Shown here in pieces: positions 1-62,693 of a DNA stretch of 64,000 nt. The position numbers were made by a program, and so were the translations under genes. The number at the start of each line of letters is the position of its first letter. Positions within the stretch are counted from its first letter, which is position 1. This stretch comes from Catajapyx aquilonaris (taxonomy: Eukaryota), in NCBI GenBank assembly GCA_000934665.2, contig KZ537962.1, forward strand, positions 1-64,000, read 5' to 3'. The notes below the pieces were generated by a model, which saw only the letters and a program-made list of their open reading frames with translations, was not told where the DNA came from and searched no databases.

Positions 1-3000
1 GGGGGGAACTTGAAGCGTGCCTGAATATTTTAACCGAGGTCCCTTTGTAAAAATTTTTGCCCGGGGCTCCCTGAAGGCGGTGAGGTGTAATGATTTCCGT
101 CTGGTAACAACCTCGTGCCGATAATGTCGCTGGTCCCGACTTAATAATTAACCAGATTCTCTTGCCTTTTGATGGCACACGTGTGATAACATTTTGGACC
201 AGGACGATAACTTGTTCGATCAGTTTTTGGGGCGGATGGGACAAAAAATCTCAATCTGGCTGAGATTTCATTATGAGGAAAGCGAGGAATATTTGCAGGG
301 GTGTAATTCACATCCAGCATATTATTGGCTGTGTTCTATGGGGTGTTTTGTGAGCTAGGGAACAAATTTGATCCGACAGTAGTCCGGTCTAAAATGTATG
401 GTGGTATTGATTTATGTACATATGTGAAAAAGCATTTGTTGGGAGGGGTAAATTTTCACGAGGCTGCTGAATTATACAACCAAACAGTACCGAATTCGGC
501 GAGTCACGGTGAGACAAGTTAATTAATTGTGCTTACTCATGCATCGGTCGGATCTGCGAACGTGTTGAAAATAGCGCCACACCTGTTTACAGTTTAATAT
601 TTTACTCGGGCGCAAAGTGCAATCTGGGCATGCCTGCATCGGGTGGGAATATGGGGGAAAACCACATTTCAGTAGTGGAAAGGTCATGTCTGTGAAACTT
701 TTTCAATGTATTTTTTTTTTCGAGGGTAGTGTGAAAACCAGCTGTCATATTAGCACTTGAATCAGCGGTGAATTCATCAATGCAGATTACAACCCTAGAT
801 TCGCACGCTTCAAGAATAAAACTTTCCCCCCCTCAACCTGCCAGTTATTGTGATTGCGTATAGCACCCCTCAACATTCCGGGCCTTGAAAAGTGTGGGAA
901 TGCTCGGGGCAAATCTCCCAACCTTGTCCTTTGAAACCCCGATTACTGCATTTCCGGCCGCATTTAGCCGGGCTGTACCTTGTGCTCACAAGGTACAGCA
1001 GAGAGAGCTCATCCCACAGACGCATCCACCAGAGCAGTAAACAGCACTTAAGTCCCTCTTTGAAAGGCACTGTTTGGGATTGTAAGGAGACCGCAGGACG
1101 ACTGTGTGTGATGTTGTCCTAGTGGAAAAAAAAGAGTGTGGTACTAGTGAGATGGGAGCTCTCAAAGGCTGCTGAATAGCATACAGTGCTTGAGTAGGAG
1201 AATAGATTCCCACGAGCCTATAATAATAATCATAATCATAATGCCCTGGTGGTCAAAATATCAGACAGGTCATTGGGAATCAGATATGCTCATGAATGGG
1301 AGTGAGCGCCGGCCGTCAAAAATGATTGACGCAACATCGAAAGAGAATTATCTACCGCCTTCTCTTTTTATCTGTGCACCGGTACCTTCCTGCGTCATAC
1401 GGAGAATATGCAGAAGGTGATTTACCTTGCAGCTAAAGGTCACGGGTCTTCGATTAGCCTTCCGCCTCACCTTCTTCCGTAACCGACCGTCAGATAAAAG
1501 CTCCCATCAAGTTTTTGGTTTTGACTATTCTTTGAAGTTGCAAGGGAGGAAGTTTGGTCTGGGCAGGAAGAACGTCTGGATTAGACATTTTAAAAGGGAG
1601 GAAGTAGGGGGCTTACCAGGCCGGAAATGGTGCCCATGTATTTTTGTGTCGGCAGTTACTCCCAGTATGGCTCTTCTGACAAACCCTAGGTTATGAATTT
1701 TGGGGCAGGCTAATTATGTACGTATGCCCAACCGGAAGTGGACGTTCTAATTTTAAATAAATTATCTGGTTTAAAAAAAACAATATATAAATAATAAACT
1801 GAATTGCTGAAGTGGTTGTGACGGTTGGTCTGAATGGTGAGTTTGTCATCTTCCCCCTCTGTCGACAAATGTTTGTGTAATATTCCGGACAGGATTAATG
1901 AGATTGCAATTTGCAGTAGGCGTGTGCCGGAGTAAGGAACCTTGCTAAGGTCCACAACGAGATGGAGGGGAAACCCTCATTTTGGTGGGGAGAGGGAATG
2001 GCTTGTGCTCCGGAACATTTCATTCTGACGGGAAGAAAAGGGAAAGAAAGAGGGTGGAGGGACCCTCTCTGTTCGAAGGGGAAGAGGAGATGGTATGATT
2101 TCAGCAAGGGAGGGGATGATGTTGAGAGNTTGGTGGGGTTGGTAGAAGAAGAAAAAATGAAGCCAACTGTGTTGCTTCTTGACTCGACGTTATTCGCCGC
2201 CGTGGCATCGTCGAAAACTTTTTTTATTGCGTTTTGTGCCAATTGTCGATATGAATGTTTGTCAAGTGTGAGGGAAAAAAAGAGGGGTGACCACTTCCAG
2301 AGGCACTTGGGATGGTGAATGGAAGTGGCTGGGAATGAATGGGCTCTCATACTGGGTTGTCAGATGCAGAAGGGGTATTGTTCTGTGGAGATGGGCAAGA
2401 CATTTTTGATGGAGATGCCTATAGCTGATGAGTACAATATTTCAACGTGGCCAGTCGTAAAGGAAGTGCCTTTATGATGGTTAATTCACCGACGCCTGCT
2501 GTGGGAAAAAAGTTTTCTTCTAACTTGGGAACTGTAATTTCGAATTAAGAGCCCAGTGAGTGAAAGCACTCGATACCAAATTGACCGTGGTGGGATCTTG
2601 TCGACCAGAAAGCGAACCCCATTTCTTTTTAAAAAAAAGTTTTTTCACATTTTTTTGTGGACTCCCTCCACATGTCTGAAGCCCAGCAATTTTCAGAGTA
2701 CGAGGACCCTAGTGGAACCCACCCAACCCATTTATAGGTCTGAAAAATATTTCCAAGCGCTGTCAGGAAAGTGGGAAGAAAGGGCCTTTTTCTCCTCTGA
2801 AAAACTGGGATTGACGGGGCTTCGCCAAAGTTTGAGGATAAGAAGAGCCTTGGACTTTTTTTTAGATGGGTATAAAAAAAGGCACCGAAAAATATATAGG
2901 CAGGAAGGGGTTGGCCTAGGTGGCGGGATGAATGCGGTTGTGGTTTTTAAGATCAGCCACAGTTGCAGCACGTTAAGGATCTGAAGGCAGCAAAGAGCAC

Positions 3001-6000
3001 CCGAGGAGGAGAAGAAAAGAAGGGGCCTGAATGGCCCAGGGGCAGCTGGCTGGGAGCCACGGAAAGGGGCTGGTTCCGTGAGAAGAGCTGGGTTGGTGAG
3101 GAGACCCCCAGCCCTATGACCAAGACTACAAGAATGGGAGCTGGATTCTGCACTGCTTGGCTGATTCGAATAGGGGGCATGGGGACACATTCCTGGCCTT
3201 GGTGACATTCTGGTTGATGAGAAGCGGAATGAATTGCTATGGTTTTTTAGCCACATTCACTGTACGGGAGAGCCAACTCAATAGTGCATTGCGGCACAAC
3301 CTCCCACTGTTGACGTACATTGATGTGTATAATTGCACGACCCCAAATTGCAGTTGTCGCTCTAGCCTGGGCCGAGTTCGTCATATTATATAGCGTGCTC
3401 TGAATATGCGGAGCTGGAGGGCACCGGGTAATCAAACCGGGCTGAATTGCAGTTGTCCAGTGTTTCCTCCGGATGTGTCTGGAATGAAACTGGTCCCCGG
3501 AGGAACGTGGGAAAAGCTATCCTTGCGGACTGAAAGTTCATTGAGGAGGAGGTGGCCTGGGGGACCTTTTTGCAGGCCGAGAGAGGGACATTGAGATCCC
3601 TGCCACGGGCTTAATCTGGAGTAAATGCCCCGTGCCAGGTACGCCATTTTGGTGACCATTGGCCTCCTGGAAAATGAGGTTGAATTGGGAACAACTGGGA
3701 ATCACAGCCAGGTTGGAGTCAGGAGGTACAAGAGGCTGATTATGGGTGCTCACGTGTGTTGGAATGGTGGCTTGGCACCTTCTGCTGGGAATATACAGGG
3801 TGTGCTGAAAATGAACCGTTTTCTACCATTTCTACAGGAAGGACCTATACCATGCCTGAGTCATTGCAGCAATGCACACCATTTCTGGCCGTACTTTCAG
3901 ATCAATCGGACCGCTATCGCAATGCATTTTTTAAACTTCGTCGCCTCTGATAAGGACATTTGTCGCTCCATTGGAGTTAACGAGGAAGCCTGTTCCTATA
4001 AACTTCTGATGCGAATCCAGTTGGATGCTGTTATTGTGCAAACTCGGCCCTCATTTACGGGCGCTGTATCATAATTCACTTTAAGTGGATTACGAGTCCA
4101 GCGGCAGTTCTGCCAGATTACCAGGCGCCGTTTGAAGTGCTCATGAGCACCAGATGTCACAGTTTTGGCGGAAACTCCCGGAGGAACTTTTTTTTTGGTT
4201 TTGTTGTTTTTTTTTGGCCATGGGCGTATACAGGGGAGGTCTGGCAGAACGTTGCTAGGTTGTCGTTGTCACCGTCTCTTCAGTCCGGGTAATAAAACTT
4301 ACCTTGGGGGCAATAAAACTCTGGAGAGATCTTCTGACAGTGTAAGATGTAATCGGAGATGAGCCATTTAATTGAAGTACTTGCAGAATGAGGAGGAGGA
4401 TAAGGAGATGAAAAGGGCGTTTCTTTTAGAGAGGCTATAAGAGGATGAAGAGGGTGGGACGAATTGCTGGCACGTGTCAGATTCTGGTTATATACAAGTA
4501 CATTTGGGATGAGTCATAATGTGCTGACTGAGACTGAGTCGATATTGTCCTAATGTATCATTTTAACAATGTTTTTGTGGTCCATTTTGATATATTGTTA
4601 TTTTCGTCCTGATGATACTGCACAGCCCTGCTTCCCTGTGTAATGCATTGATCTATTGAAGGAAAACTTGTCACTTATGGTTAGGGCTGCTCTTGTAGTT
4701 TCCACAATTAGTGTTTTGTTCTCGGGGTTTTTTGAGAGAGGACTCGCCAGGCGGGATTGAGTTCTTTGATGCCGAGGGTAGTTGAGCAAATATAGCGTGA
4801 TGGCTTACCAGCTGAACTTGTGTGAAAGCTTCCCCAGTCCGGGTTTTGAGCCATGATAGATGAGAATCGATTGCCGGCAGCTGATCGAGTGAAAAGTGGA
4901 CGTCGTGTTTACTGGCAAGATCCGCCCATTCAGCTAGGTGCTGGAGAGGGAGTGAAATGATTAATGCTTAGTCCCCTCCCCATTGTATGAGCAGATTAAT
5001 AATTTCGCGATTCGGTTCTCCATAGAGCCCATACCTGTTTCGCAGGAATTGCAGAGGCCGAAGTGGCGGCTTTCCCCAAGGACGATAGCTGCCTATAGGT
5101 GCATTACATGCAAGAGATGCACTAAAATTCTCGTATGGCAGCAGTTGGCTAGGGGGAAACGCGGCTATTAAGCAACGAGTGACGTATGCAGCGAGGGCAT
5201 AGAATGACCTTCACGTTCGAGATTTTACTAACACTGAAGTTGGTTGTTTGGCTATGAACTGTGTAAAGGTGCTTTTTCCAGGACGCGGTGTAAGAATTTG
5301 GGAGGGGAAAACAGCGTGTGACGTCACTGAAACCGGTCTTGACGCAGGAGTATGGTGCGCAGTTGGAAGACAAAAGGCCATGTGTGTTGAGGAGGAAGTT
5401 GCGTATTTATTATTTTTTCCATGTACAGTACTCAACTTGTAATATGTGACGCACTCGGTTAGGACACCCGGAAATTAAGTAAATATGTCAAATGTAATTT
5501 CCCGAGGTCAGCTTGTTGTTGAAGTATGTTGACGGATATTTTCCATTGAAACAGAAAATGGGAAGTGATTTTGATTCTTTGACATTGGGTTCTTGCGGGG
5601 TCAGAGAATGACGATGGCTTCTTTTGTTAGTGTATTTCCCGACACTATAGTTTTTTGTTTGTTTTTTGTTTACATTCTAGGCGGGGTGTGTAATGAGGTG
5701 GTTTCAACCCTTGCGATATTCTCATAATCATTGCCCATGTAGTGAGACATCGTGCAGCTTTGTTCGGTGGGAATTACGTGGTAAGGCACGAAACGAAGCC
5801 TGAAATTAAGGAAACTGAAGCATGAAAACAATAATTTGGAAGCAGCTGCAGACTGAATAAAGTAAATATTGCTCTAGTAATGCTTTTGTTACAGCCAAAT
5901 TATGGGGTTTAAAAAGGGGGAATATTACCAAGGATAATAGACACATGCTTAAATATTAATTTATTATATATATTGCCAATGAAATGCGCGATGTAAATAT

Positions 6001-9000
6001 CTCGTAGAATGAAACCCTCAGAAGCATTCATACGATATTCCTTGCTGTATTCGCATGAATGTGCTACTGGTCAGGTGTTTCCTTCATTGAGCAAATGCAT
6101 CGGTCACATGTTTTGACTACACATTTTTTGCTTCTGCTGATGAAAATACGCGCACAATGAGTCATGACACCATATATCATAACAGGAGGTGCACACCACG
6201 GACATTTACATCACACATATTCTGACCATGTAAATTTATTTTTGAGCATGCTTTTATTTCCTGGTAATATTTTTCCATTTTCCTCCCCATAACAAAGCCT
6301 CTAATGAGCTTTCTGCCTATTGTCTTAATTCAGTGAACCGTTGTCAGTACATATTAGATTATTGCGCCATCAAGTAAAATTATCCCTTTTACTATTCATC
6401 ATTCTTATTGCTTATGCGCTTTTTGTTGTAATATGCACCGCAGAAATGAGAAAATAATTATGTACTTCATTATATGCTGAATTTTTTTGTTTATGGTATG
6501 ATGAGGATGAAGACGTACGGTGAAGTTATTTACGACGTAGAGGTCGAACCCACCTGATTTATATGTTAATGAAGGTTCAGGTATTTCCCCTTTCTAAGAG
6601 ACCCGAGGCAGTTGCGTGTTTTATGAGTATATATCACTGCCTGTGTACACTGCATGCATGTAGACTTATCATCGCATATTATGTTGCGTAAAGGACACTG
6701 AGTACACCATAATAAGCAGAATAAAAGAATGCGTATGTCCGCATATACACTTCGAGCCCTTTAGATTAAAGAGAGAGAAAAAAGTCAATTCCCATATTAC
6801 TGTGCACACGCACCCATATAGGCGTACTATTTATGAATGCAAAATGCCCATTTCTCCCAACTGTTGCATTTTAGGGTAGTTACAGTAGACAATATGGGAT
6901 ACCATAAATCATCACACAAAATACTCACGCTGAAGGGCTTTGAAGTAAAAAGCACTGGTTTACTTGACCAAAATGGACCTATCAGGGACTAATTGCATCA
7001 GACAGGAGCACCCAGCAGTTTTTGAGAGCTGACCCTTAATTTTAGGTGTGGTTTTCCGCAAAGTTCTCCCACCGAGTGCATCCCGCTCCCAGCATAATCG
7101 TTAGATTCATTTGTAAGCGATAGTAGGGCTAATAAATTGTTCCATAGCGTGACAGCATTCGTCACGCAGCTAGTGGTTGTAAGCGTAGAATCCGCCTCAT
7201 AAAAATCAACGATAGCCATATTTTATAGTCGCCCCACCTAATGTTGGATAAATCGGTTTTTGAGCGTACATCACGCCATATAAAGAGGGATAAAATGCGG
7301 AGCTTTACGTGTTTTTGGGTTTGAATTGACGTATCCCACTTAATTGGCAATTATGAAGGACGACCATTGACACATGGAATGCCACAAATGAGTTCATTGG
7401 CATGTCGAAGAGGCGAGCTTCACAAGCGACAGGTGGAATTAGTTGGGAAACGTTGTTTCCGTTCTGACGTCGTCCCAGCACGTCAACCGTGTCTACTCAG
7501 CGAATGACACACGACCTCGGTTGGGAATTTTCCAACCCCCGACGGATCATCTCCGGGTCCAATAACCGCAGATGTAAGCCATGCCGCCAATGCCAATGGA
7601 AACCCGGTTGAACGGATTTGGAGTTTGCAAACCAGAGTTTGTGCATATACAACTCATCATGGTGGGTGAATTGTAAAACATGGATAGGGGAAACTATGGA
7701 GGTTCACGCTGTGCATTACTTGAAATTTGATTTTTTTTTTCAATGGGAAGTCTCCTAAGGGTGTGCTGAAGTGTAAGGCCTGGAGCGAGGAGAAAGGCGC
7801 CATGTGGAAGGTATGGAGGAGCCACCTGGTGAGGAGGCAGCTGCTGATGGTCCTTCCCAAAGGGCACGCGCCTCCTGTCACAAGAACATCTGCTCTTGAA
7901 GATGAATTCTTGCTGAGGAAGCATCAGATTGCAGGGTGCTCAAGAGTGCGGCTCTGACCCCATAGGGTTACTTAGGGTCATTGTCCAATAATATTCTACA
8001 GATTAGTCTCAACTCAGGCTGCCAAATGATTGATTACATCGCATCATAGTTTCCTCAATAGCAGGTTCGAAGGGACTATTGCAAATAAGTGATGCAATTT
8101 TCGTGCCACAGAGGCTTTGTAACGGGTAAAAATACCAGTCAGTTAATATCCCATACTGCGCATATGGCGGTTTCAGCTGAAAATTTTGCACTGCTGTGCA
8201 GTGATACTTATCTGGGTGATAATACAGTTTGTGCATGTAAATCGTGCCTGTACAATGCAGAGTGCAGTACCAACCTTCCACCAATATAGCGTTGCACATG
8301 CGATTAGCGAAGCACGAACCGACCCAAAATTAGATGATTATCCCCTTGTGTGTTTGGGCTTTAGAATTGATGCGTATCTGTAGGTTTCTAAATGAGCTAG
8401 AGCGATGGGTATACGCTGCACTATGGCAGTAAAAAAAAAAGTATAATGACATTTATAACGTGATGAATGTAAAAGTTCACTTGTTTTTGAACCATCATTC
8501 GCTCTATACCTGTGCTAGTGCGTCTGTAAGCCGACGTCTATTTTTGGGCCAAGGCCGGGTTTAAATATTTGCACAAAGAACGGATTCACGTCCTTTGAAT
8601 GCAGACTCTGGACCACTAAATGCATCCGAACTTCATGCCACAAATGAGACGGGTTTTTTAAAAAGGTGCGAGATTAAGTCTGGGCTGTCAGTCCTGTCCT
8701 AGTGGAAAATTTGCAGCCTTGATATTAAATATTCAACTTTCTCCTTTTGAACTTACACTCCCGCGTATACGTAATTTGCTGCAAAATTTACATCACAAAG
8801 AGTGCAAGTTCAGTAATCCTGCATGCAGTTTGCTTGACCTGCCAGATGCTTACTGTACACATATGTTCACACTTGAATGGAATCGAAAGGAAATCCCAGC
8901 AGCAGTTTATGGCTAGTTTTAAAATGAGTTACGATTCAGGTTTTGATTGAAACCCCCAATATTCGTTAAGGATTTGCCTGGGTGCAATATAACGTTTTAT

Positions 9001-12000
9001 TCGTCTCCCTTGGTGGTTTTGCTTAAACTTTGCGGAGGGGGCCATCTCGCACATTCAGGTTGGATTTGTGAAAGGCTCTTTTTGTCTTGAAGGGCGCACC
9101 TGCTCGAGGGATCAACTTCTCGAATTATTCGGCGGGCCATTTGCCGCGGCGAATTCCTGGCGTGATTTGCATATAGAAATGAGGCGAAGGAATGGAGAAT
9201 AGGAAGCACTTCACTGTCGATTCAGAAATTAAGCTTATAATGGCGTCGTTCTGTTTCCTCCGGGGCGGAGCATTGAATGGGATGAAGCTTTTTTGGCTAT
9301 TTCGGCGGAAAAGTTTTACTCCCGAAGAAGAAATCCTGCTGATGGAGAGGATTTAATTCGGATCTAATTTCTAGCCGTGTTATATCCCAGTGCTCCTTCC
9401 GTGGTTTTATCCGTAATAATTGGGCAAGTTTTTGCGATATTGTTATCGTAATGGTGAGGGATGAAACGGGAGATTTAATCTGTAAGTGAAACTGAATCGC
9501 TATTATAGCGTCGTAAGTGAAATACATTTTTATGAGCTATTGTGTAACTTCTGAGAGGGAACCTGAAATAACTACCGTCTCGAATTTTAAATGGCTTTAG
9601 ATTATCACTTCATTTGCGAGCATTATCATTTGAGACACGTATAATGATCGGTTTCGCTGTTTTTAATGCAGCAGTGCGTAAAATTTGGCTATTTGCATTC
9701 TGCTCAACGTGTAGGGGATCGTGAAGGGTTATCTTTTTCATGCGAGTGGCATGGCCGTTTATCGGTTTGAAGCCGCATTTGCATCGGGTTTTAAGTGGCA
9801 CAGTTTCATTCACACTTTAATCGGCCAATGGTTTCAGTGTCATTTCCATCTGCGTATGGCAGCATGGGCCGGAACCAGAGCATGCTTTGATGGCAACAAG
9901 CCGGACTAAAAAAAAGTGCATTATTGAAGCTACTGACTGTTGGGGCGATGGCAGCCAACAAAGGCAGACAGCTCAAAGGGCGAATGTCCTTTTGTCGCAT
10001 AGAAGAGGTAAACCCTCTCCAAAACCATGTGTCCACATGAAACGGGGCTGTGAGGGCGTACGTAAATTTGCGCATCTGGGTATGTGACGGGCGTAATCGT
10101 CGACACAGCTGTCATGGTCGGGGCAACGTGACGGTAAATAATTGAGTTGCTCGCACGTGACTCGTCACACTTGCTGCCAAGTTTGTGGGTACGGCCATTT
10201 TGTTGACATGGAGTGATATGCAGCTAGTGGTAAATTAACCCCACCTACANNNNNNNCCCCCCCCCCCCCCACCATGCCCATCCGATACGAATGGTCCATT
10301 TGTGTCAGGGTGTGATGAACACTGTTAATTAGGGGATTATTGTCGCAAGCCAGGTGCGGAATTGATTGCGAGGATTTGCACGACCTAGTGCGTCGTAATG
10401 TGGCTGTTGAACGCTTTTAAAGCTGTCGCCCAGAAGTTATTTTTGAGCTAGATAAATGCAGGGGCTTGACAATAGCGATTGAAGTTGGATGTTCTTAAAA
10501 TATGAAGTCAATCTGTTCATTCTGGGATGCCAAGTGTGTCATACGTGACGCATTGTATGCAATGTCAATGGGGAATTATGTGGCAGTGAGGTACGCAGGC
10601 ACAGTTTCAGGAAATAATTTCATGCTTCAAATATAGAAAACCTTCCGACAACGCGACGGTGTAAATATACACGATGAGCTCTATATAATATTTATGTTTA
10701 TGCTGTATTTATAGATGTGCAAGTGTTTGGAAAGGTGAATTATCCTGTTGTAAATCATTCTGAAAAAGAAGTCTTTGGTTAAATTACGTAATACAAGACA
10801 TTACATGACATAATTATCTGCATACATTACTGAATCATTACGTATCCGTGGAATTTAGCCTTGAGAATGGAAATCGCTAAGTACAGGTAGCCAATTATCT
10901 CCTCCCCCCAACTTTATCTCCACCCACTACGTCCTATATATGCGGGAGTATACCGTCGTAGTCCCTTGCTCTACCGGCATTGATGTTATCTGCATTTACA
11001 CGATATTTTCTCTCCCTTAAAGGAAACCAAACTTCCTTCCTATATTTCCCGTTGTGTGTACTGCACGTTATGTTTTCAAAGAGGTCATATTATTTCCTTA
11101 TTCTTTCTGCTTTAGATGCTTTTAAAAGCTCTTTGAGACTATGCCAGAAAATCTTCTGCTTCTGTCCTATCATTTTGCGAATATTGATATGTCATTTCTC
11201 ATGAGTTGTTTCAATAGGGCCTTACGCTTGCATTTCCTGTAAACGGTAGTTGTTTGCCAGTTACGTTCGTGACTCAAGGGATTATGCTTCTCGTCGAGCA
11301 TAAAAAGGGGCAATTAGAACCTTGAAAGTTTCTTAGGGGCATCCCCCTTCACGCCTCCAGGGCACTAAAGTACATTTGAACATCTAACTCCTTACCATAT
11401 CTCATTGGCATTCCAAGGGAGCGTCTTCCATCAGTAGGATGATACTCCCCGAAATGAAACAAAAGCTCTAGCATGAAACCTGAGTTGCACCTTTGGGACC
11501 TAACTCCAAATTAACTTGTCACAAGGCAAGAAGGGCGGCTCTTTCCCTTCTCCAGGTATTACAATATGTATGTGAGTCGGCGCGTACATACACGCCTTTA
11601 GGGCAAATTATACATCAACATAGTTATGTGGCACGCGCAGTATAGAGTTTGATGTTGACTTTGGAGCAAAATTGCAGGGCTGCTGAGGGTGCCCATCATC
11701 TCTGGATTTACAGTAATGAGAGTGGACCTCTGGTGCGACACGTTCATTGAGCCGGCCTCACAATCCCGCAAGCTTGTTTGAATTGGGGGTATAATTAGAC
11801 CACCTTGAGTAGACGATAGTGTTGGGATAGGGGATGACCGGAAATTGGAGTCAATTTTATTTTCGCTGACGTAATTAAATCCGGAATGATTCCGACAGGT
11901 AGTGCCTATATAGCCGGTAATCGGTCACCGTCAGCAAATCAGCAACAAATTATTATTATTATGTGTCTTCCTGTCTTGTACCGACTTTCAGCCTGTTTCA

Positions 12001-14235
12001 CCCTTGGTATTTTCCATGTCGTGGGGGATCCGGAATAATTCCTTAACAAAATTCCTTGATATCATCTAACATTCAGGAACTACGTTCCAAGTCATCTGTT
12101 TGGCATTACCGTTACCGCAACAAAACTGTGCAAATAATTACCGTAATCCCCGTTGAAGGCACCTGGTGTAATTGCACGATGCACTTAGCGGGTTGAATGC
12201 TAATGTTAGGCCATTACTGTCTACCCATTGGCATCATGCTACACAGTGCCATCCATATCTGGAGCTTCTCAGGCAGGAGAATCACTTTGTTTAATAACAC
12301 CCATTATCACTTGGCGCCTGGCAATATTCTCGGTATCAGTCATTTTGCACCTCTTGTGACTGCTCCAAACATGCATAATAAGCCGGTCACGTCGGTTTTG
12401 TTTGCATGAGCAGGTTGCAGAGACCTTACATGGCGAGAGGCGGTGTATATAGGAATCGGTCGTAATATTCAAGAACTAGTTCCTGCCGCTGTCAGAATTG
12501 CCGGGCGCAATAAGCTCCTACACCTCATTAACTGGTCTAATAAGCCTTTCGGGTTTTCACAGTTCCACGACGAGATTGCATCGTGCATTTGCGTAGCCGA
12601 AGAAATCTGGTTCAGAGTCTGCTTGCCTCTGGTGAATGTGCTGCACGATGTTTATATATGTAGCGCTATACACCAGTGGGCAGGTTGGGGGATGGCACAA
12701 ACTATGTGCTCCATCTTTTAGATTTTTTACTTCCGGGCGGGGACAAAAATTTCCCGGGCTCAAAATTGAGCGGGGCCTGAGCTTCGGGCTATGGCTGCTG
12801 CAGATGTAGTAAAATGTAACGTATAGTGGCATGCCCTGCAATACAGTGTACGAGTATATGGAGAAATGAGAAATGGTGTCCAGGGAATATGGGAGTTTTT
12901 GTGTTAGTCTGGGTAGGTGGACTGGTTAATTGCTTTTAGGATATTTGTACTTTTCAATTAATATTTGAAGCAATATTAGTCCCACATGTAAGGATTTTCT
13001 CTATGGACACTATTTTTTACGCTGGTCGAGAGACCTTTTGATTGGGAATGATGCCCTAATGCTATTTAAAGAAATGCACAAACTGGCATGATTGTTTTAT
13101 GAGTATATCTTGTAGGTGGAAAATTGAGATGTAACTGGTGATGAGGGGGAGGGGAGGAATGGAGATTTTTTACTACGTCATTCAGCAATAATGCTTTCAA
13201 ACATCTAAGGCCAAGTTTTGAAGGTTACTCATCTATAGCATTTGACTCAACTGCAAGCCGTATTTGAGCAGGAAAGGTTCTTTCTCGGAGGGAGCAAGGA
13301 ATCGTGCTTAATGTTCTGGCCGAGAAAATTTTGTTCCGGTTAGTAAACCCATGCATAACGTTTCCGCTCAATGCTTCTCTTGTTGGAAAACGAAAGTTTT
13401 GGAACCTGAGGAGATCTTCAACTGAGCCAATCAATAAAATCGATACCCAATACTTGGTTCTTTGTTACTGTGTCCTCCTCATTCAAGTCTGATACGGTCA
13501 TTGATAATAATCCAAAGTGGTAGTCTAAATTATAAATAAATAAAGTATAAATTACTCCATCGTCCATGATTTAAAAATCATTGCACTGCTTTTATATGTA
13601 ATGTGCTGCATATAGGGTCCAAAGCAAGTAGCGTAATGACACTTTCAAGAAATTTTCCAGGATTATTTTTGAATGAACTCATTTTGCCTTTGACTGTAAT
13701 GCTTCATATAGGCCTGCGTAATTGTCAGGTCTTTCAAAAGAGACTTATACTTTTAAAACTGCTAATGCGCGAATAAATTATGAAAATCTCTACGAGAAAT
13801 TAATTAGCAATTAGTATGGCATTATTGGAGAATACTGTAATGGCTGTGGCACAGAATTTAACCAAAGGCCAAGGCATACTTTCCTGAATTAACCTCCCAC
13901 TTCCTGACTTCAGTAAAAGCCGCACTTTTGATCCCCTAACGACCTCCTGCGCAACCAATAACGATAATTGACCTTTCCGTAAAAAAAAAAACGACAATAA
14001 AAGGTTCCTTTTTATGGGGTCGTGAAGGCAATGCAACGGTGGGGTGAAAAATGATTTAAGGTCTGAGCAGATTGGGTGTGCCCCCGATTAAATTTCGCTT
14101 CCGGAAAAATCCGGGCCATCCGGGGGATAGATCGATGATGGCACGGCCGGTGCTGAGACTGTTCCAATACCAATACGCTCTAATGACATCGGTTAAGACG
14201 TGTGTGAGTAACTGCTTTTTTCGATCTGGTTTCAG

Positions 14236-14292: not shown

Positions 14293-14324
14293 ATGGACGA
14301 CGGTAACAAGCGGCAAGGAACAAG
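14293..14324 (+). CDS. krz: beta-arrestin coding exon 1 (MDDGNKRQGT-R)
   Basis: ATG GAC GAC GGT AAC AAG CGG CAA GGA ACA AG|gtaggt. Phase 2 joins exon 2 to give ...KRQGTRVFKK, the typical beta-arrestin N-terminus (human MGDKGTRVFKK). Confidence 0.85.
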
Positions 14325-14513
14325 GTAGGTTGTCTGCCCCCCCCCNNNNNNNNNNNNNNNNNNNCCCCCCCCCAAGTCATATTCTGCACATTACGCAATT
14401 GTACAGCTTAAATTATCGTACAGTAGTGGCGTAAGCTAACACAAATCATGAGTGAGGATTTTAAACAGGTGACATTGTTCGTCATTTTCAAAGGGTATAG
14501 TTCTGGCAAAATG

Positions 14514-17500: not shown

Positions 17501-20500
17501 CCATGGCTAGCCGCGTGAATTGCCTTTTATGGACATATGATGTGCGGGTGATCAATAGTCTACTTACAGCTTGTTATAGACTATTCGCAAGATGGTAATG
17601 GTTGGACTTTTTCGCAAAAAAACGTGACATTAACGAGGTTTAATCGCATTTGACATGGTACATTATGGAGCGAGAGCCCTGGGACAATGTATAAATTATG
17701 ACTTCCTTACATGAACTACAGTATTCAGTTTGTGTTATCCGAGAGTGCTTCGTGTGAAGAGGAGCTTTCCTGGGTTCTCCACGAAGAAAATTTTGTTTGG
17801 AATTGTCCAGATGAATGTTATTTGATGCGTTTAGAACATTATTGAGGCTTTAGATTAGTTGGTGTTTTATTCCAATAATTAGACCGTGACTGCCTATACA
17901 GTGCCGCACCTATTGAGTAAATGGGAGTATTCATCAGCCTCAGGTAGAAGTACTTCACTACCTAGACTGTTATAGGCTTGGTCATAGATTTCACCCCGTG
18001 CCACTTGAGTGGCGACAAGGCGATTTAGGTAATTTTCGCCCGGCAGAACCACTCCAGATCTGCCACTGTAAAGAAGAGCAAAGTAAATTCGATAATTGGG
18101 TTCATGCATTGCTGATGAGCCCTTAGCCCCACCCGCACCTCTCGTCGTCCTGGAAACGCACAATGACATACCGTATTCTGGGTACATTTTTAATTTCTGA
18201 ATGTTTGAACGGGCCTTCGGCTCCCAGGTTCGTCGAGGGAGCTGAGTGAAAGGGGGGTAATCTCGTGGAATGGACCGGAATAAATTCATGCCCCCNNCCC
18301 CCCCCCCCCCCTCAATCCCAGGTGATCGAAGGATTCGATATCCGGGCAGGCTGGGCTGAGGAAGAGTAGTGCAGGGAAAAGCAGCCTTGCATTTTCTTTC
18401 GGATGGGCTCCTCTTTCACTATAAGGAGAGCCCAAAACAAAGCCCTGAGCAGCATTTCCTTCATGGGCGAGCACTTCCCCTTTGCTATTGATCTTGGAGA
18501 ACAGGCGTTGGGCACTGTTTACACTACATGACACTGCGTTTCAGGGGGCTTCAACGAAAGGAAAAATATTTGATGGACATATTTACACTGTGGGGGGCAA
18601 TATGACAAAAGGCGGGCATGAATATTTGAATGGGCATTTCGTTCTCCGGGCATTGATAGAAGGAGATAGGGACTTTCATTCGCTTTAAAAGCTTTTTTCC
18701 AGGTGGAATTGGGGTCGATAATTGGGCCATCGCCCAGTGGGGACAACAGTCTCGGCTAGGGATAGAGATAACCTGGGTGCTTGTCACTCCTGATCTAAAG
18801 CGAGGGGATTTGACCACGCCCAGTGGTTACTGATTGCGGAGGCTGCCATCGTCGAAAACTTTCCGCGCCAGCACTTTTGCTGGGTCAACGGTGCACTGGA
18901 CCTTTTTGGAGAAATTGTGGGTGTGAGTGCGTGAAGCGTGGCAGCCCTTGGAAACGCTTTTATGTACTGTATACAGTGCACGCGCAAATGAGCACCTATT
19001 TGACAAAAACATTTCAGTGTTACATATGGTTTTCAATAATTTCCAAACCTTTAAGATCTCTTTAAATCTGTAGATCTATACCTTTAGACAAGTTGATAAG
19101 TACATCCAAGCGTAATTAGGATAATTTTTACGTATGTCCTAAAGCATGATATAGATTGAGAATACCGAGATGGCAGTTACAACTTTCTGGTGACGTCAGA
19201 TGATTGTTGTTAAGAAAGTGCGAGATGAGCGAGGATGGTGTCGCCCACACGGTTGAGAATGTGACGTGAGAAACAGCAGATCATTGCTGGCTGCAAGGGA
19301 ATCGCTCCAATTAGAGCCTCGGAGTAATTAAGTTCCTGCTGGCGATCACCGTCAGAGTTCTAGCTGTTTTCCATCAGTCAGGCTGAAATACGCGCAGGTT
19401 GGATTACATTGGAAGTCCTGCATCCAGCGCTTTAACGGAATTAAGGGGCTTTGAAAAATGCCCAGTGCGAAAAGGGGTTGGGTCTCTGTCTTCTTCACTT
19501 TTCCGGGCCTGACGCTAGGATCCCAAATCGAAAGAGACGTTCGACCTTCTTTTCTTCCAGGGCTGACAGCCCGAGATAGTCATCTTTGTCTGCCTCCTTA
19601 CCATTCAATCTTCTGCATGCTATTGAGGATGTTGAGATTTCGTGCACTGCTGTTTCTTGTATCACTTTTGTGACACCATTCGCTGGGCGTGTAGTGTAGA
19701 ATGACCTGCTTGCGGTGTAATGTGTACTTAAACTTGCTTTGTGGTTGTGAACAAGGAGTTATTGATGTTCTGCTAATACCCTAACTGAGATTTTGGTAGA
19801 AATTATCGATTGGATTTGAGGGCAAACAAGATGTTTGCGAAATGGTGTCCTGAATAACTTAGCCTTCCTTTGGCGGGGGTCCATAGAAAAAGTGGAGCTC
19901 CCAGAATTTTGATTCCTCATTTCGGACCTTTTTGGCTCTGGCGCTGTTCTGAGGAGAGGAATATTCATCACATTATAAAGATAGCAGTAATAATAACGAA
20001 ACTTAAGGAAAGTTCGACCTAACTAATTTGTCCTGGGCGATGTCTAATTAATTAAGCAACTTAATTAAAATACCGATGTATAGGCTAAAAGTTATCTGAC
20101 TTTGAGTTGACTGCAGGATGGTGTGTGCAGCGTTAGACAGCGATAGGATCGTCGGATGTGAGTAACACCGTGCCACTTTGATTGCGAATAAGCTCTATAC
20201 TGCCTTATCTGACTTCCTCCGTGCCATACGCAGTGACTGGCTTTCAGCGTTTGTTATGGAACACGAATAGGCACCAGAGGGAAATGTTCCGCGAGGCTAA
20301 TGCAAAAGCCCCTTGTCCTTATTTCTTGTTGGCAAAACCGCATAGACGTTGGGAGAAGTCGGGTCTTAGACAGCGTCGAAGTTAGTTCCTGGCAACGGAG
20401 ACATAATTAGCCCCAAATTGGATTTAATAATTATTATGGGAGTGTAATGGTGACTGTCAGGCCTGTGTATAGTCTGCACCGTTGCTGCTTCCGGACCATT

Positions 20501-29000: not shown

Positions 29001-29788
29001 ATGCGTCATTTCCAGTGAAGTTTCATAGCCCCCCTTTCATTCTAACTGGACATGCAGTTGGAATGAGGGGTTCAATTTCAGAATTGTTTCTATTCTTGCT
29101 GGGGGCAGGATTTTTACAAAATGATGATGTAGACTTCAATATCTCAAGAGTTATACCCTTTGGGCTTAATTCACTTAGAGTGCAGGCCCATGAGTTGACC
29201 AGGGAATTCCTTTTGAAATATTGACGGAGGGCTTTTTCAGAGAAATCTCTGGAGGGAAATCTGCGAAACGTATACCCGTGGACGAATGTCAATACAACCT
29301 GAGTTACATGCAGCAAGTAGTTTGTCAAATTATTTTGTGCTCCTTCCTATCCCGGTGGGAAGAGGGCAAGTAGAAAATGCATTTTGCATACTAACCTGTC
29401 ATTTGATGCTATATGTGCTATTTTTGTGTACGCTGTGTAATATGTTTCATTATCTTGTACACACAATATAACACTAAGCTGTCACTTTTAGTGTCATGAT
29501 GCGATAGGGTTATTAATAATGGATATCGATTTTTATGCATATTACGGATTTAACCTGCATTTCAGATGCGGAGTGCAAATGAAGTTCTGGAGGTCGCGTT
29601 GGCCGTGAGCTTTATACTGTATATGATCGTTTCATCGATCCGGCGGTAGTGTTTTGTACGTCCTTCAGTTTTGTAGATCCTGCGCCGGAATGTAGCTTCT
29701 GGAGAAGCAAATAATAACAGCGCCCAATATTAGAATCAGATGTCGTTCAATGAAACTGTATTTTGTTTCCTCATTAGTTGTGCATTGT

Positions 29789-29822
29789 CTGACGTTTCTT
29801 TTTGTTTCCGTTACAGGTAAGT
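29789..29822 (+). promoter_or_regulatory. candidate recursive splice site (ratchet point), AG|GT at 29816/29817
   Basis: CTGAC branch point (A at 29792), then gtttctttttgtttccgttaCAG, followed immediately by a perfect GTAAGT donor, inside a 34-kb intron. Confidence 0.7.
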
Positions 29823-32800
29823 GTCAGCTTCAATGTCGCAGAGATGAGATGTCGAGAGAGCCTCCTGTCGTGTGTCATAGGCCTACATCCTGGACCGGAG
29901 AACGAGGTCATAATGGCCAATTTGTATGCTGTAGCTCAGCAGCCTGTAGGGTGCAGAATTATGGAATGCACTGCATATTTCACACTCACTGGTTGGTAAA
30001 GATGGTTGATGACTCCATGTCATGGTGAGTTTTTGATCATGTTTGCTAGCAGGGATACCATAGATATCATGCTCCGCATCTTATTCTATTTTAATGTACA
30101 ATACGTATTGTCTTGAACAAATCGCTCCAAGGCATTTCTACATTGTAGGCGTTTATGTAAGCTTATTTGCTCTCAATTCAGATTTACTTACAACTTGTGA
30201 ACAGCTTGTAACTCATCGTATTTCCGTTTTTCTCCTCGGCTGGAGCTCCGAAAATCAGATCCGACCAAACTATTCTTATCTCTTACCCACACCCGTCGAA
30301 CTTGCTCCCTGTTTTGCCACGGCCTTCTGGGTCCATTGTACTCGAGGACGGTTTTCTGGGTGAGCGCGATACATGGCAATTCCTCGTAATCCGCATTGTT
30401 ACGTCTGAGCTGGCACAAGGGGATTTTTACCTCCTTGCAACTTGCAAGTATCACCCGCCTCCTCGATGTTCCTTTCGAACTTTGCAGACGTCAACTTTTT
30501 ATTACCGGGAGAATCGATAAGGGCCCTTGAGAGGCAGGGCTTTAATTAACACGTGCCTGTAGATAGTTACGGTCCTTTCACACTATTCTATTTCGCTGCT
30601 TGAGATAGTAACCCTTTGGGATCAGTAAAGTTGAAAACGAATTCTATTGCAGGGCTAGAAGTATTATATAGGGTCAACGTGGGTTTTAAGATCGTGTCTC
30701 AGCTTGTGCAAACTGACACATTTAATTAGGAACGTGAAATTAAAGAATCCGTCGTTACGGAAATGAGTCGCTCGCAGTATAAACTTTACATGTCGTTTGG
30801 GTAGAATGGGCATGCTTCGAAGCGAGTGATAACACAAGCAACAATGGAAACTGCTATGGCCTTATTCCCTGATTCTTCTCGGGTAATGCAATAAAATTGT
30901 ACTTGAAGGCTTAGAGGGCATTACAGTACCCTTTCAAGCAGCGTTTATGTCTGACAGAATTATTTTGGACGAACCGTGGGCTTGGTCAAGTACTGGATTT
31001 CAGCACCATGCTGGCGTAAACGTCGAAGATGGCTTCCTGACTGTAAAGTCGCACGGTGATAATGCTGGTTTCAAAATACATCCACTTCAGTGTACTGTAA
31101 CTGCTAACTAACAACTATCTCATTAGGACTATATGTTCCAAGGTGCGCAGAAGCTCATTGTAAACGCTGGTCGAGAGATACAGCCTGGAGTGTGTTGCAT
31201 TTACATAGGCTGGACCCCAGAGGACGCCACTCAACCTGTGTCCTAATCTAAATCGGATTGGGCGCTGCTTTAGTGCGGTCTGTGCGACTGCGGAATCGCT
31301 GCGATTTCATATTCATGAGTCGAGGGCCTAGACCAAATTGTAATTTATCTGACAGTGTAGTTTACTCCATGGATTTAGCATGGGGTCCGTGTTTTTGTAC
31401 TTGTCATACTGTTTGACTCGGTACTTATGAAAGGGATTAACATCACGGCCGTGTTTTGCACCAGACTTGTATTTTGAGATTTTGAGTATTGGGATCACGT
31501 ACAAAGACAGCACCATCACGCCTAGGTATATATGCAAAGCCTGCGAGCAGAATTCATATGTTGCATTAAAGGGCGCCTGCTGCTCAAAATGAGGCGCAGT
31601 CACCTTCCTGAAGGTGACATCTTGGCCCCCAACAGAGTAAGAAAAATGGCCACTCTGGTGGGCACACATAATCTGGTTAGGCGCAATGGCCCGATGTTTC
31701 TCAATTTCCAGGTGGCATTTGCACGTATGAAAAACCCTCCTACCACACACCTGAAAAGCAAAGGAAAATGCTCATGGGGCTGGCACTATTTCCAGGGTAT
31801 CATTAAGCGACACGTTTTTAATAAGCCTGAAAGTGTCGTGCGTTGTGGTCAGCTCCGTCGGGGAACCCAAATGAAGCTGGACTCGGTGGGGCGTCGCCTG
31901 CATGCAAGTTATATAAGTCCAGTCAACGAAGGAATACGAATTCTGGAATGCAATTTGAGCCGGATTTAACAATGGGCAGTATTGGGTCCAACTTCAGTAA
32001 CATCAATCCTGGACTTAATATTCAAGGAAACGCCTCCCTAGACTGGATGACCACCTGAAAAATGGCTTGACATACTGAATTCGATCCTTCATTTGTAACC
32101 GGAAAGCTCGCTCCTTTTGCACCAGGTTGGGTGAATAGTTGCGTTTCGAACTGAAATCGATGGACTTTTTTCGACCATTTTTTGGGGGAGTTGTATTCCA
32201 TATCTACCAGGCGTGGGAGCCCACAAGAATTCGCCGGCCCTTCCTGATGAATGGGTGCGCATTGTTCCATGTTGGTCCGTTCCAGATATTCCAAGGGCGT
32301 TTATCAGACCGACTTGGTAAGAAATTTAGCGGAGATTATGACAATAAATCTTTTGCGGTTGCTGCGCACTCGTAGGCCCAGGGAAAATGCGGGGAGGGAA
32401 CTTAATGAAAAGTTAGTCTTTCCTGGCGAGCTGACTTCGGTTGTTTGGAGCTTGCGAATCATCAGTCAGGTAGAGCACGGAATGTAATGCCTGAGGGGTA
32501 ATGTGGTGCATTAATTAGCCTGCGATTTATATCCGCACCTTCCGGTTATACGTCGCTGTAATCATTATAATGACCTTTAAAAATTGCCAATTTTCTGCAT
32601 ATGGCAGCGCGTGTAATTTTCAGACTTTTTGGAAGTGTTAAGATGCCAACGAACTGTGATGAGAAAAAAAAAACAGGGCAAGAAAAATAATTATGGTGGG
32701 GATTTTTTCCCTTCCACAGCAAAGGGCTATTGCCATTAATTTTTATGATGGTGGTGCTGCCTCTATTCTCTTATGTGCAGAAAAATAAGGCAGAGACCCC

Positions 32801-48225: not shown

Positions 48226-48256
48226 AGTTTTCAAGAAGAGCTCGCCTAATGGGAAG
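48226..48256 (+). CDS. krz: beta-arrestin exon 2 (R-VFKKSSPNGK), 31 nt
   Basis: cttttcttcttccattgcag|A GTT TTC AAG AAG AGC TCG CCT AAT GGG AAG|gtaagt. Encodes the conserved phosphate-binding KK. Confidence 0.95.
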
Positions 48257-50352: not shown

Positions 50353-50413
50353 ATTACAGTGTACCTTGGCAAGCGAGACTTTGTTGACCATGTCACTCAC
50401 GTGGATCCAATAG
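50353..50413 (+). CDS. krz: beta-arrestin exon 3 (ITVYLGKRDFVDHVTHVDPI-D), 61 nt
   Basis: ttcag| and |gtaagt boundaries. Contains the arrestin signature YLGKRDFVDH. Confidence 0.97.
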
Positions 50414-50650: not shown

Positions 50651-50844
50651 ACGGAGTGGTTCTGATTGACCCTGACTACGTGAAGGACAGGAAAGTGTAT
50701 GGGCATGTCCTGGCAGCCTTCCGGTATGGCAGGGAGGATCTGGACGTACTGGGGCTCACCTTTCGGAAGGACCTGTACCTGGCGTCGGAAAGGATCTTCC
50801 CAGCCGACCCCGATGTCGCCAAACGTCCACTCACCCGACTGCAG
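50651..50844 (+). CDS. krz: beta-arrestin exon 4 (GVVLIDPDY...[18 protein letters not shown]...LTRLQ), 194 nt
   Basis: Contains the finger-loop motif [14 protein letters not shown]. ccag| and |gtaaat boundaries, phase 1 to 0. Confidence 0.97.
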
Positions 50845-53342: not shown

Positions 53343-53521
53343 GAGCGACTCATAAAGAAGTTGGGGCCAAATGCTTACCCATTCTACTTTGAGCTCCCAC
53401 CACACTGTCCTGCTTCTGTGACACTTCAACCTGCCCCAGGAGACACTGGTAAACCCTGTGGAGTGGATTACGAGCTCAAGGCCTTTGTGGGTGAGACTCC
53501 TGATGACAAACCACACAAAAG
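53343..53521 (+). CDS. krz: beta-arrestin exon 5 ([14 protein letters not shown]...KPHK-R), 179 nt
   Basis: Matches arrestin N-domain sequence [24 protein letters not shown]. gcag| and |gtcact boundaries. Confidence 0.97.
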
Positions 53522-53602: not shown

Positions 53603-53738
53603 GAATTCCGTCCGTCTTGCCATCCGGAAGATCATGTATGCTCCTAGCAAACAAGGAGACCAGCCGTCAGTTGAAGTTAGTAAAGAATTTATGATGAGCC
53701 CCAACAAGTTACACCTTGAAGCTTCACTGGATAAGGAG
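53603..53738 (+). CDS. krz: beta-arrestin exon 6 (NSVRLAIRKIMYAP...LHLEASLDKE), 136 nt
   Basis: Polar-core arginine motif SVRLAIRK, the hinge, and LEASLDKE. gcag| and |gtaagc boundaries. Confidence 0.97.
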
Positions 53739-53847: not shown

Positions 53848-53932
53848 CTGTACCACCATGGCGAGAGTATCGCCATCAATGTACATATTGCAAATAACTC
53901 TAACCGAATTGTCAAAAAAGTCAAAATTTCAG
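53848..53932 (+). CDS. krz: beta-arrestin exon 7A ([29 protein letters not shown]), 85 nt, alternative copy 1
   Basis: ttcag| and |gtacag boundaries, phase 0 to 1. Homologous to vertebrate [27 protein letters not shown]. Confidence 0.95.
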
Positions 53933-54102: not shown

Positions 54103-54187
54103 CTTTACTGCCATGCCGAGACCATCTCAGTCAATGTCCATATCCAGAATAATTCCAGCAGAAGTGTTAAAAAGATTAAAGTGTCAG
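54103..54187 (+). CDS. krz: beta-arrestin exon 7B (LYCHAETISVNVHIQNNSSRSVKKIKVS-V), 85 nt, alternative copy 2
   Basis: ctttctcttttcctgcatgtag| and CAG|gtatgt boundaries. Same length and phase as 7A, no stops, 18/28 aa identical to 7A. Confidence 0.9.
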
Positions 54188-54833: not shown

Positions 54834-54906
54834 TGCGTCAGTTTGCAGACATCTGCTTATTTTCTACTGCTCAGTACAAATGTACAGTAGCAGAAATTGA
54901 GAGTGA
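54834..54906 (+). CDS. krz: beta-arrestin exon 8 (RQFADICLFSTAQYKCTVAEIES-E), 73 nt
   Basis: Conserved VRQFADICLFSTAQYKC. tatag| and |gtaagt boundaries. Confidence 0.97.
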
Positions 54907-56784: not shown

Positions 56785-56928
56785 ACAAGGATGCCCGGTA
56801 GGCCCTGGCTTCACTTTGTCCAAGGTTTTCTATCTGACCCCCCTGTTAGCCAACAATAAAGATAAGCGAGGGTTAGCGCTAGATGGTCTCCTGAAACATG
56901 AAGACACTAACCTGGCGTCCTCAACAAT
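56785..56928 (+). CDS. krz: beta-arrestin exon 9A ([47 protein letters not shown]), 144 nt, alternative copy 1
   Basis: tgttgtttcag| and |gtaagt boundaries, phase 2 to 2. Carries the lariat/gate-loop motif [19 protein letters not shown]. Confidence 0.95.
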
Positions 56929-56993: not shown

Positions 56994-57137
56994 AGAGGGC
57001 TGCCCAGTTGGGCCAGGCTTCACCCTCTCCAAAGTGTTCTCTTTAACTCCATTGCTGGCCAACAATAAGGACAAGTGGGGCTTGGCCCTTGATGGGCAGC
57101 TTAAACATGAGGATACTAATTTAGCTTCCAGTACCAT
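56994..57137 (+). CDS. krz: beta-arrestin exon 9B ([47 protein letters not shown]), 144 nt, alternative copy 2
   Basis: cttttttgttgcag| and |gtaagt boundaries. Same length and phase as 9A, 43/47 aa identical. Confidence 0.95.
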
Positions 57138-58955: not shown

Positions 58956-59042
58956 AATCACTGAGCCATCTCAGAGAGAAAACTTGGGCATTATTGTCCA
59001 ATATAAAGTGAAGGTGAAGCTTTGCCTCGGACCCCTTTCAGG
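58956..59042 (+). CDS. krz: beta-arrestin exon 10 (ITEPSQRENLGIIVQYKVKVKLCLGPLS-G), 87 nt
   Basis: Conserved RENLGIIVQYKVKVKL. tgcag| and |gtaagt boundaries. Confidence 0.97.
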
Positions 59043-59118: not shown

Positions 59119-59265
59119 GGATCTAGTAGCAGAGCTGCCCTTCATCCTAATGCATCCAAAGCCAGAAGAGGAGCCCTTGCCTCCACTCCGTTTAAGTCCT
59201 GCCATGACCTATGACAATGATGGCCACAACGTTCCAGTGGACACCAACTTGATCCAACTTGACAC
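59119..59265 (+). CDS. krz: beta-arrestin exon 11 ([18 protein letters not shown]...[10 protein letters not shown]), 147 nt
   Basis: Contains [11 protein letters not shown] and the clathrin box LIQLD. ttcag| and |gtatgt boundaries. Confidence 0.97.
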
Positions 59266-62178: not shown

Positions 62179-62240
62179 TATCGATCAAGTGCGGAGGGTC
62201 ACGTGATCAGGACACGTGACCGTCCAGCAAAGATGGCGGC
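62179..62240 (+). promoter_or_regulatory. NOMO proximal promoter and start region: DRE-like TATCGAT, two CACGTG E-boxes, YY1/TISU-like AAGATGGCGGC
   Basis: TATCGAT at 62179-62185, GGTCACGTGA at 62197-62206, CACGTGACC at 62213-62221, and AAGATGGCGGC spanning the ATG at 62233. Confidence 0.55.
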
Positions 62241-62402
62241 GTCCGAGTCGGCGAGTGCGGCCAGGATGCACCGCATTTTGCTTCTCCTCCTGGCCATAAC
62301 CGCAGCCAGTGTGGGTCCCACTGGAGCCGACGACATCCTGGGCTGCGGGGGATTCGTCAAGAGCGACATTGACCTCGATTTCGTACGGGTCGAGATCAAA
62401 CT
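62233..62402 (+). CDS. NOMO1: Nodal modulator (NOMO) coding exon 1, with signal peptide
   Basis: MAASESASAARMHRILLLLLAITAASVGPTGA-DDILGCGGFVKSDIDLDFVRVEIKL matches human NOMO GCGGFVKSDVEINYSLIEIKL. CT|gtaaga donor. An alternative Met lies at 62266. Confidence 0.92.
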
Positions 62403-62693
62403 GTAAGAACAACGCCGACACTCTTTTTTGCGGGTAGTGTTTCGGAGGGAATCGCAACTGTTCTATCCATTCGCAAGTCTGGGCCTTTTAAATAGGCCTA
62501 CCCGTTGGCTGAGGCCAAAAATAACGAGAACCACTCGCATTGTTGGGATGGTGTATATGTCCCTGATACATGATGTGATTAGAATTTGTGATTGCGTAAT
62601 TCACCATGAGGTAGTTATTTTCGGATCATTATGTTGTTGCCCCTCCCCCCAATGCTCCAGTTGCTTTTAGTAACACAGTATAATTCATTCCAG

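Follow-up and report, generated by a model that had tools for sequence, protein, structure and literature searches.

Zero-nucleotide recursive splice sites, or ratchet points, are reportedly known in Drosophila from Ubx, kuz, Bx, luna and hundreds of further cases, in work associated with the names of Burnette (2005), Duff (2015), Joseph (2018 and 2021) and Pai (2018). Here we describe a candidate site of this type in a 64,000-nucleotide stretch of the genome of Catajapyx aquilonaris (GenBank assembly GCA_000934665.2, contig KZ537962.1, positions 1 to 64,000 of the forward strand; hereafter the window). It consists of an acceptor directly abutting a donor at positions 29816/29817, within the first intron of a beta-arrestin gene. 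We believe, with a confidence only a little above even, that it is a zero-nucleotide recursive splice site through which this 33.9-kb intron would be removed in two steps.

The consensus of such sites is given as (y)nncag|gtaagt by Shepard et al. (2009, PMC2773006). Table 2 of that paper compares motif densities on the sense and the complementary strand of introns longer than 50 kb; the respective values are 2.196 and 0.101 in fruit fly, 1.029 and 0 in mosquito, 0.807 and 0.101 in beetle, 0.540 and 0.066 in sea urchin, and 0.484 and 0.122 in bee. The sense strand is thus in excess by 4- to 22-fold (more than 10-fold in mosquito) in all five invertebrates, which implies that roughly three quarters to more than nine tenths of the sense matches in these species exceed background, whereas the ratio is 0.9-1.5 in all eight vertebrates, where genome-wide enrichment is accordingly not seen.

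In Drosophila, recursive introns measure 11,341-132,736 bp with a median segment of 16,368 bp, 196 of 197 ratchet points carry TT at -5/-6, and the sites are conserved (Duff et al., bioRxiv 10.1101/006163). Pai et al. (2018, PMC6110457) report about four times more sites, present in most introns above 40 kb, with single sites lying near intron midpoints and with first introns enriched. According to Joseph et al. (2021, PMC8605326), fly recursion further requires a cryptic recursive-splice exon (RS-exon) of about 50 nucleotides (nt) with a downstream donor; these exons are out of frame, poorly conserved and “subsequently always skipped”, the outcome being set by competition between donors. The arrestin site shares with the Drosophila ratchet points the (Y)nNCAG|GTAAGT motif, TT at -5/-6, a long first intron with the motif on its sense strand, a single location near the midpoint that leaves segments of 15-18 kb, and a downstream donor that would define an out-of-frame cryptic exon, the ratchet-point donor being at least as strong. 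Judged by its sequence, it appears to fit all of the cited fly traits of this level except the length of the RS-exon, which is 208 nt here as opposed to about 50 nt; it also differs from the fly sites in being known from sequence alone. The Duff preprint mentions neither kurtz nor krz in its main text (zero occurrences of each).

Three other systems invite comparison. In vertebrate RS-exons (Sibley et al. 2015, as reviewed in PMC5126111), the recursive site likewise doubles as the start of the RS-exon. Whether the exon is included depends on which of two competing GTs prevails, the rebuilt one or the one downstream, and the included exons carry premature stops; it is from this work that the idea of a “poison RS-exon”, put forward in an earlier note on the window, stems. 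Unlike the arrestin site, the vertebrate sites are few and lie in much longer introns of brain genes. The rat alpha-tropomyosin pseudo-exon is also an intronic 3′ splice site abutting a 5′ splice site and acts either as a zero-length exon or as an alternative exon inducing nonsense-mediated decay (NMD; Grellscheid and Smith 2006, as described in PMC2773006), but it is a single mammalian example unlinked to the removal of a long intron. The third, in locust NPF1 (PMC8892266), was predicted from the Burnette matrix within intron 2, which is 230 kb long; it is likewise from an arthropod other than Drosophila and has an upstream branch point and a poly-T/C tract, but differs in having indirect experimental support, from U2AF65 RNA immunoprecipitation. 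In the literature searched on recursive splicing in arthropods, transcript-level or indirect support beyond Drosophila and vertebrates was found only for this locust gene, and a literature search combining recursive splicing with arrestin returned nothing relevant by title or abstract.

The candidate splice signal at 29816/29817

The features on which the argument turns are the following, in window coordinates.

14293-14324, forward strand: coding part of exon 1, ending ...ACAAG in phase AG, with donor AAG|GTAGGT at 14324/14325 (8/9)
14325-48225, forward strand: intron 1, 33,901 nt, GC content 44.7%
29789-29793, forward strand: branch-point-like CTGAC; its A, at 29792, precedes the 3′ splice site by 24 nt
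29794-29813, forward strand: pyrimidine-rich tract GTTTCTTTTTGTTTCCGTTA, with 14 of 17 pyrimidines at -20..-4 and TT at -6/-5
29814-29822, forward strand: CAG|GTAAGT, an acceptor directly abutting a donor, the donor matching GTRAGT at 6/6 positions
29817-30024, forward strand: putative cryptic RS-exon, 208 nt (1 mod 3)
30022-30030, forward strand: downstream donor ATG|GTGAGT, its bar at 30024/30025, preceded by ...CCATGTCATG and matching MAG|GTRAGT at 8/9 positions
48226-48256, forward strand: exon 2, preceded by ...CCATTGCAG, with donor AAG|GTAAGT

The site reads ...CATTGT CTGAC GTTTCTTTTTGTTTCCGTTA CAG|GTAAGTGT..., the bar marking 29816/29817, so that the motifs and coordinates reported in the earlier note are all as it gave them. 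Between -50 and -10 there is no YTRAY other than CTGAC, and the stretch from it to CAG is free of AG; by chance, such a zone would contain YTRAY with a probability of about 0.24 and CTRAC with one of about 0.04. The tract compares well with those of the gene's 13 true acceptors, which score 8-15 pyrimidines out of 17: its 14 are exceeded by one of the 13 and equalled by two more. The split of the intron into 15,492 and 18,409 nt was also correctly reported, and places the site 45.7% of the way along the intron. The sense-strand motif, TT at -5/-6 and segments of several kb within a long intron are what is expected of a Drosophila-type ratchet point. If exon 1 joined 29817, the donor rebuilt at the junction would read AAG|GTAAGT, with 9/9 matches to MAG|GTRAGT as against 8/9 for the native donor of exon 1. 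It should be borne in mind that the branch point, the AG-free zone, the downstream donor and the out-of-frame exon are supporting features picked after the fact. An exact 24-mer spanning the site had no match in metagenome contigs.

Rarity of the motif

How often such a signal would arise by chance is the question on which most depends. AG|GTRAGT, like the 8-mer AGGTAAGT, occurs three times on the forward strand of the window and once on the reverse. The forward occurrences end their AG at 29816, 48256 and 50413, the latter two being the true donors of exons 2 and 3; the single reverse-strand occurrence is an AAG|GTAAGT at 4302. Within the intron, the earlier claim that this is the only strong acceptor followed by a perfect donor bears scrutiny, 29816 being the sole AG|GT with a 6/6 GTRAGT among 106 on the sense and 98 on the antisense strand. 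In Markov simulations of intron 1 (orders 0, 1, 3 and 4; 4000-5000 each), the bare AG|GTRAGT was expected 1.54, 1.08, 0.68 and 0.52 times per intron, respectively, and the 8-mer alone is therefore not beyond chance. Once at least 14 of 17 upstream pyrimidines were demanded as well, the expectation fell to 0.0052-0.0075 per intron, and to 0.003 when a pyrimidine at -3 was also required. The strong recursive-type motif is thus rarer than chance would have it and unlikely to have arisen by chance in a given intron (p ~0.003-0.008).

Scoring matrices were also derived from the 13 donors and 13 acceptors of the gene itself, with the candidate left out; they are small and overfit, GTGAGT for example being penalised since none of the 13 donors has it. 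With these matrices the joint score of the site, 24.6 bits, is the best among the 204 AG|GT of both strands of the intron, the runner-up on the sense strand reaching 18.5 bits and the top antisense site 16.2 bits. The donor at 29817 ranks first among 2130 GTs in the intron and the acceptor at 29816 sixth among 2035 AGs. The sense runner-up is a second, weaker AG|GT in intron 1 at 23182/23183 (forward strand), CATTGCAG|GTAGGA; when set against the best antisense score, it is not clearly above background.

Of the alternatives to a recursive site, a chance juxtaposition survives best. It would make 29816/29817 a pseudo-site that the spliceosome ignores or uses as noise only, and although we regard it as unlikely, it has to be taken seriously. 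The bare 8-mer is expected about once per intron (0.5-1.5 times), and an equally rich tract, with at least 14 of 17 pyrimidines at -20..-4, precedes about 21 of the intron's AGs (1.03% of 2038). Under relaxed thresholds (at least 11 pyrimidines and a donor of at least 5/6), there are as many sites on the sense as on the antisense strand (3 versus 3), that is to say, there is no general enrichment. Moreover, since the scan that yielded the signal covered very many windows, some chance matches at p ~0.005 are to be expected. What argues against chance is the joint expectation of just 0.003-0.0075 per intron, the combination of the top donor with one of the top six acceptors, and the fact that a branch-point motif, a zone free of AG and, further downstream, a strong donor are present as well. 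In the invertebrates tested in PMC2773006, moreover, most sense matches to the motif exceed the antisense background.

The downstream donor and the putative 208-nucleotide exon

The earlier note had also reported a second donor, ATG|GTGAGT, that would delimit a 208-nt cryptic exon whose inclusion after exon 1 reads AG|G TAA, an immediate stop; sequence, length and reading frame all proved to be right. The sense strand of the intron carries ten GTRAGT, those at 29817 and 30025 included, and the chance of another one within 250 nt is about 0.07. When exon 1 is joined to 29817, the frame reads R and then TAA, and when the 208-nt segment is joined to exon 2, TG|A arises at the junction; the cryptic exon is thus out of frame and carries stops, and its inclusion would entail the premature stop typical of a poison exon. 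The rebuilt donor AAG|GTAAGT (9/9) is stronger than the donor of the RS-exon (8/9), as befits a ratchet point.

These same features could belong to an ordinary poison cassette exon (29817-30024) that lowers arrestin levels via NMD, in which case the GTAAGT at its start would be a coincidence and would not be spliced again. The exon is of ordinary size, at 208 nt, its acceptor and donor are of normal strength, and inclusion leads to an immediate stop and a frameshift. However, only about one exon in 2000-4000 would begin with a perfect GTAAGT by coincidence, and because the rebuilt donor outscores the exon's own, re-splicing would be expected under donor competition. We give this explanation little credence.

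A related proposal retains the recursive site but turns it into a regulated two-way switch, in which the rebuilt GTAAGT would normally remove the 208-nt exon but the donor at 30025 would win in certain cells, in certain signalling states or in transcripts with an alternative start, and would so direct arrestin mRNA to NMD. We rate it at least as improbable as the poison cassette. The earlier note had combined recursive splicing with NMD-coupled control of arrestin level; the recursive-splicing part agrees with the anatomy and the rarity of the sequence, but the NMD part found no support and runs counter to the fly precedent of constitutive skipping. Seen against it, the stop codon simply follows from GTAAGT itself and does not speak for regulation. 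We read inclusion of the RS-exon, should it occur, as an error product rather than as a demonstrated regulatory device.

A coding role for the region was considered and rejected. An open frame of 110 codons at 29696-30025 has no credible homology: in Pfam it meets only CyRPA (E 0.056), whose 13.1 bits fall well short of the cutoff of 38.1, and phmmer against 1.84 billion representatives gives three matches at E<=0.001. The best of the three is 21% identical over 11 stretches; it involves nine Pfam families that are unrelated to one another, none of its stretches passes, and an alignment by BLASTP is not obtained. All three are composition artefacts.

Further explanations of the donor motif

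Two other explanations take account of the donor only, and both seem to us very improbable. In the first, an internal promoter would drive an alternative first exon, with GTAAGT serving as its donor. CAG|GTAAGT is an ideal donor, and an ATG at 29740 opens a run of 25 codons (MSFNETVFCFLISCALSDVSFCFRY) that ends with AG at 29816 and is in phase with exon 2 (AG|A). The peptide MSFNETVFCFLISCALSDVSFCFRY, however, is merely the translated T-rich tract; such an N-terminus is absent from the listed homologues, those inspected beginning MDD...RVFKK; neither branch point nor tract nor CAG would be accounted for; and the site does not stand out from the intron in GC content or CpG ratio, core promoter motifs not having been scanned.

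According to the second, the element would be an intronic U1 small nuclear ribonucleoprotein (snRNP) site without a role in splicing, serving instead in telescripting, by which the long intron is kept from being cleaved and polyadenylated prematurely. In its favour, the 9-nt CAG|GTAAGT at 29814-29822 is, as we take it, fully complementary to the U1 5′ end, and the sense strand of the intron holds 18 AATAAA and 12 ATTAAA, the nearest of them downstream at 30739 and 30890. The adjoining acceptor elements, however, would again go unexplained.

Finally, an origin from a repeat or transposon can be rejected within the window, intron 1 having no direct or inverted repeat of at least 40 nt and long conserved open reading frames (ORFs) being absent. 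A structured RNA finds no support, the whole window being without any Rfam match, nor does a promoter or CpG-island context, of which GC content and CpG ratio give no sign.

The host gene and neighbouring DNA

The host gene is, by the homology of its exons, a kurtz-type beta-arrestin. Conserved coding blocks found by tblastn with three arthropod beta-arrestins run along the forward strand from residue ~11 to the C-terminus over 12 exon positions, and exon borders were refined after this placement. Arrestin_N and Arrestin_C homology extends along these exons, the matches carrying PF00339/PF02752. When exons 1, 2 and 3 are joined, their translation matches the kurtz/beta-arrestin N-terminus as it is found in arthropods (MDDPSSKRQATRVFKK in homologue P0016). 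One arrestin exon of 65 aa matches 1859 of 1969 candidate proteins at E<=0.001; identity is 80-89% in the 120 matches listed, and the species names seen among these are all arthropod. Downstream of exon 2, the coding part comprises the following blocks.

50353-50413, forward strand: exon 3, a tblastn block with its true donor at 50413
50651-50844, forward strand: arrestin coding block (tblastn)
near 53343-53521 and 53603-53738, forward strand: two arrestin coding blocks (tblastn)
53848-53932 and 54103-54187, forward strand: first duplicated arrestin exon pair (tblastn)
54834-54906, forward strand: arrestin coding block (tblastn)
56785-56928 and 56994-57137, forward strand: second duplicated arrestin exon pair (tblastn)
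58956-59042, forward strand: arrestin exon 10, with donor AGG|GTAAGT at 59042/59043
59119-59265, forward strand: arrestin coding block (tblastn)
from 59521, forward strand: last arrestin exon (tblastn)

The first pair consists of tandem copies of one arrestin exon, 85 nt each with AG/GT borders, which encode ...LYHHGESIAINVHIANNSNRIVKKVKIS and LYCHAETISVNVHIQNNSSRSVKKIKVS, respectively; their length of 85 nt is not divisible by 3, and the two copies accordingly look mutually exclusive. The copies of the second tandem pair are 144 nt each. In planthopper kurtz, an isoform of 469 aa has both copies of the 144-nt type in the same order and an isoform of 421 aa has one, which implies that this duplication is older than the split of the Catajapyx aquilonaris and planthopper lineages.

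About 2.5 kb past the arrestin stop, on the same strand, lies a gene for NOMO, a subunit of the BOS complex (~62200-63540), with a start that resembles a signal peptide (...MHRILLLLLAITAASVG...). The best relatives of its long exon are 43-53% identical and include, among the matches listed, brachiopod, tick, locust, mussel and vertebrate proteins. It follows that the protein collection contains no near relative of this invertebrate. At the other end of the window, positions 1-14000 hold six stop-to-stop ORFs of at least 120 aa on both strands, none recognisable by eye, and no long conserved-looking ORF. Short N gaps flanked by runs of C (or G) occur at 14337-14373, 18296-18297 and 33422, one of them beginning only 13 nt past the donor of exon 1; the runs look like homopolymer stretches that the assembly left unresolved.

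Discussion

If 29816/29817 is indeed a recursive site, removal of intron 1 would proceed in two steps, which we carry over from work on Drosophila and vertebrates; the sequence elements on which they would act are those observed here. After transcription of about 15.5 kb of the intron, U2AF and U2 would recognise CAG together with the pyrimidine tract and CTGAC, the A of which lies at 29792, and U1, bound to the donor at 30025, would define the 208-nt cryptic exon. Exon 1 would then be joined to 29817, with release of a lariat of 15,492 nt and with AAG|GTAAGT rebuilt at the junction. In the ensuing competition, the rebuilt donor (9/9) would prevail over ATG|GTGAGT (8/9) and be joined to exon 2 at 48226, releasing a second lariat of 18,409 nt, and the mRNA thus formed would be identical to that produced in one step. 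Should the donor at 30025 win instead, the 208-nt exon would be kept and the frame would end at R-TAA.

We consider a used recursive site the likeliest explanation of the locus on three grounds, namely the low chance expectation (0.003-0.008), the sense excess of the motif in invertebrates, and agreement with the positional rules known from Drosophila. Several observations nevertheless weigh against it, in addition to the size of the scan and the equal counts under relaxed thresholds considered above. The exon 1 donor (8/9) and the exon 2 acceptor, which by the gene's own matrices is the strongest acceptor of the intron, look fit for splicing in a single step. The enrichment was measured in introns above 50 kb, and this one, at 34 kb, is shorter; the 208-nt RS-exon is about four times the length of ~50 nt typical of the fly. 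In the first fly survey, just 6% of introns longer than 11.3 kb were recursive (10.1101/006163). The tract, which the earlier note had called long and U-rich, is rich in pyrimidines, but its continuity is broken by three G. Since TT at -6/-5 is found in 11 of the 13 ordinary acceptors of this gene, it is uninformative here. Finally, as identity to arthropod proteins does not exceed 89% for the arrestin exon, among the matches listed, and identity of NOMO to brachiopod, tick, locust and mussel proteins does not exceed 53%, transfer of the insect base rate to this genome is an assumption. It is above all because of the intron size, the long RS-exon and the very large scan that we hold our confidence only slightly above an even balance.

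Were the regulated switch described above to be true, the capacity for desensitisation of G protein-coupled receptors (GPCRs) would be tuned by it, and transcript-level proof of recursive splicing would have been obtained for an invertebrate lineage outside the Diptera. With simple use of the site, which we favour, the understanding of the mechanism would stay as it is, the mechanism being known and only the instance new. For annotation, it is conceivable that the 208-nt exon with its premature stop will turn up in transcript models of this gene, and the present analysis would be of practical value mainly if transcript data for the species appear. If the site is used, the arrestin intron would add one further case of recursive splicing, from an invertebrate that has been poorly sampled and in a signalling gene of wide expression, and would lend slight added weight to the computational claim made in 2009 (PMC2773006) that invertebrates generally, and not flies alone, subdivide their long introns.

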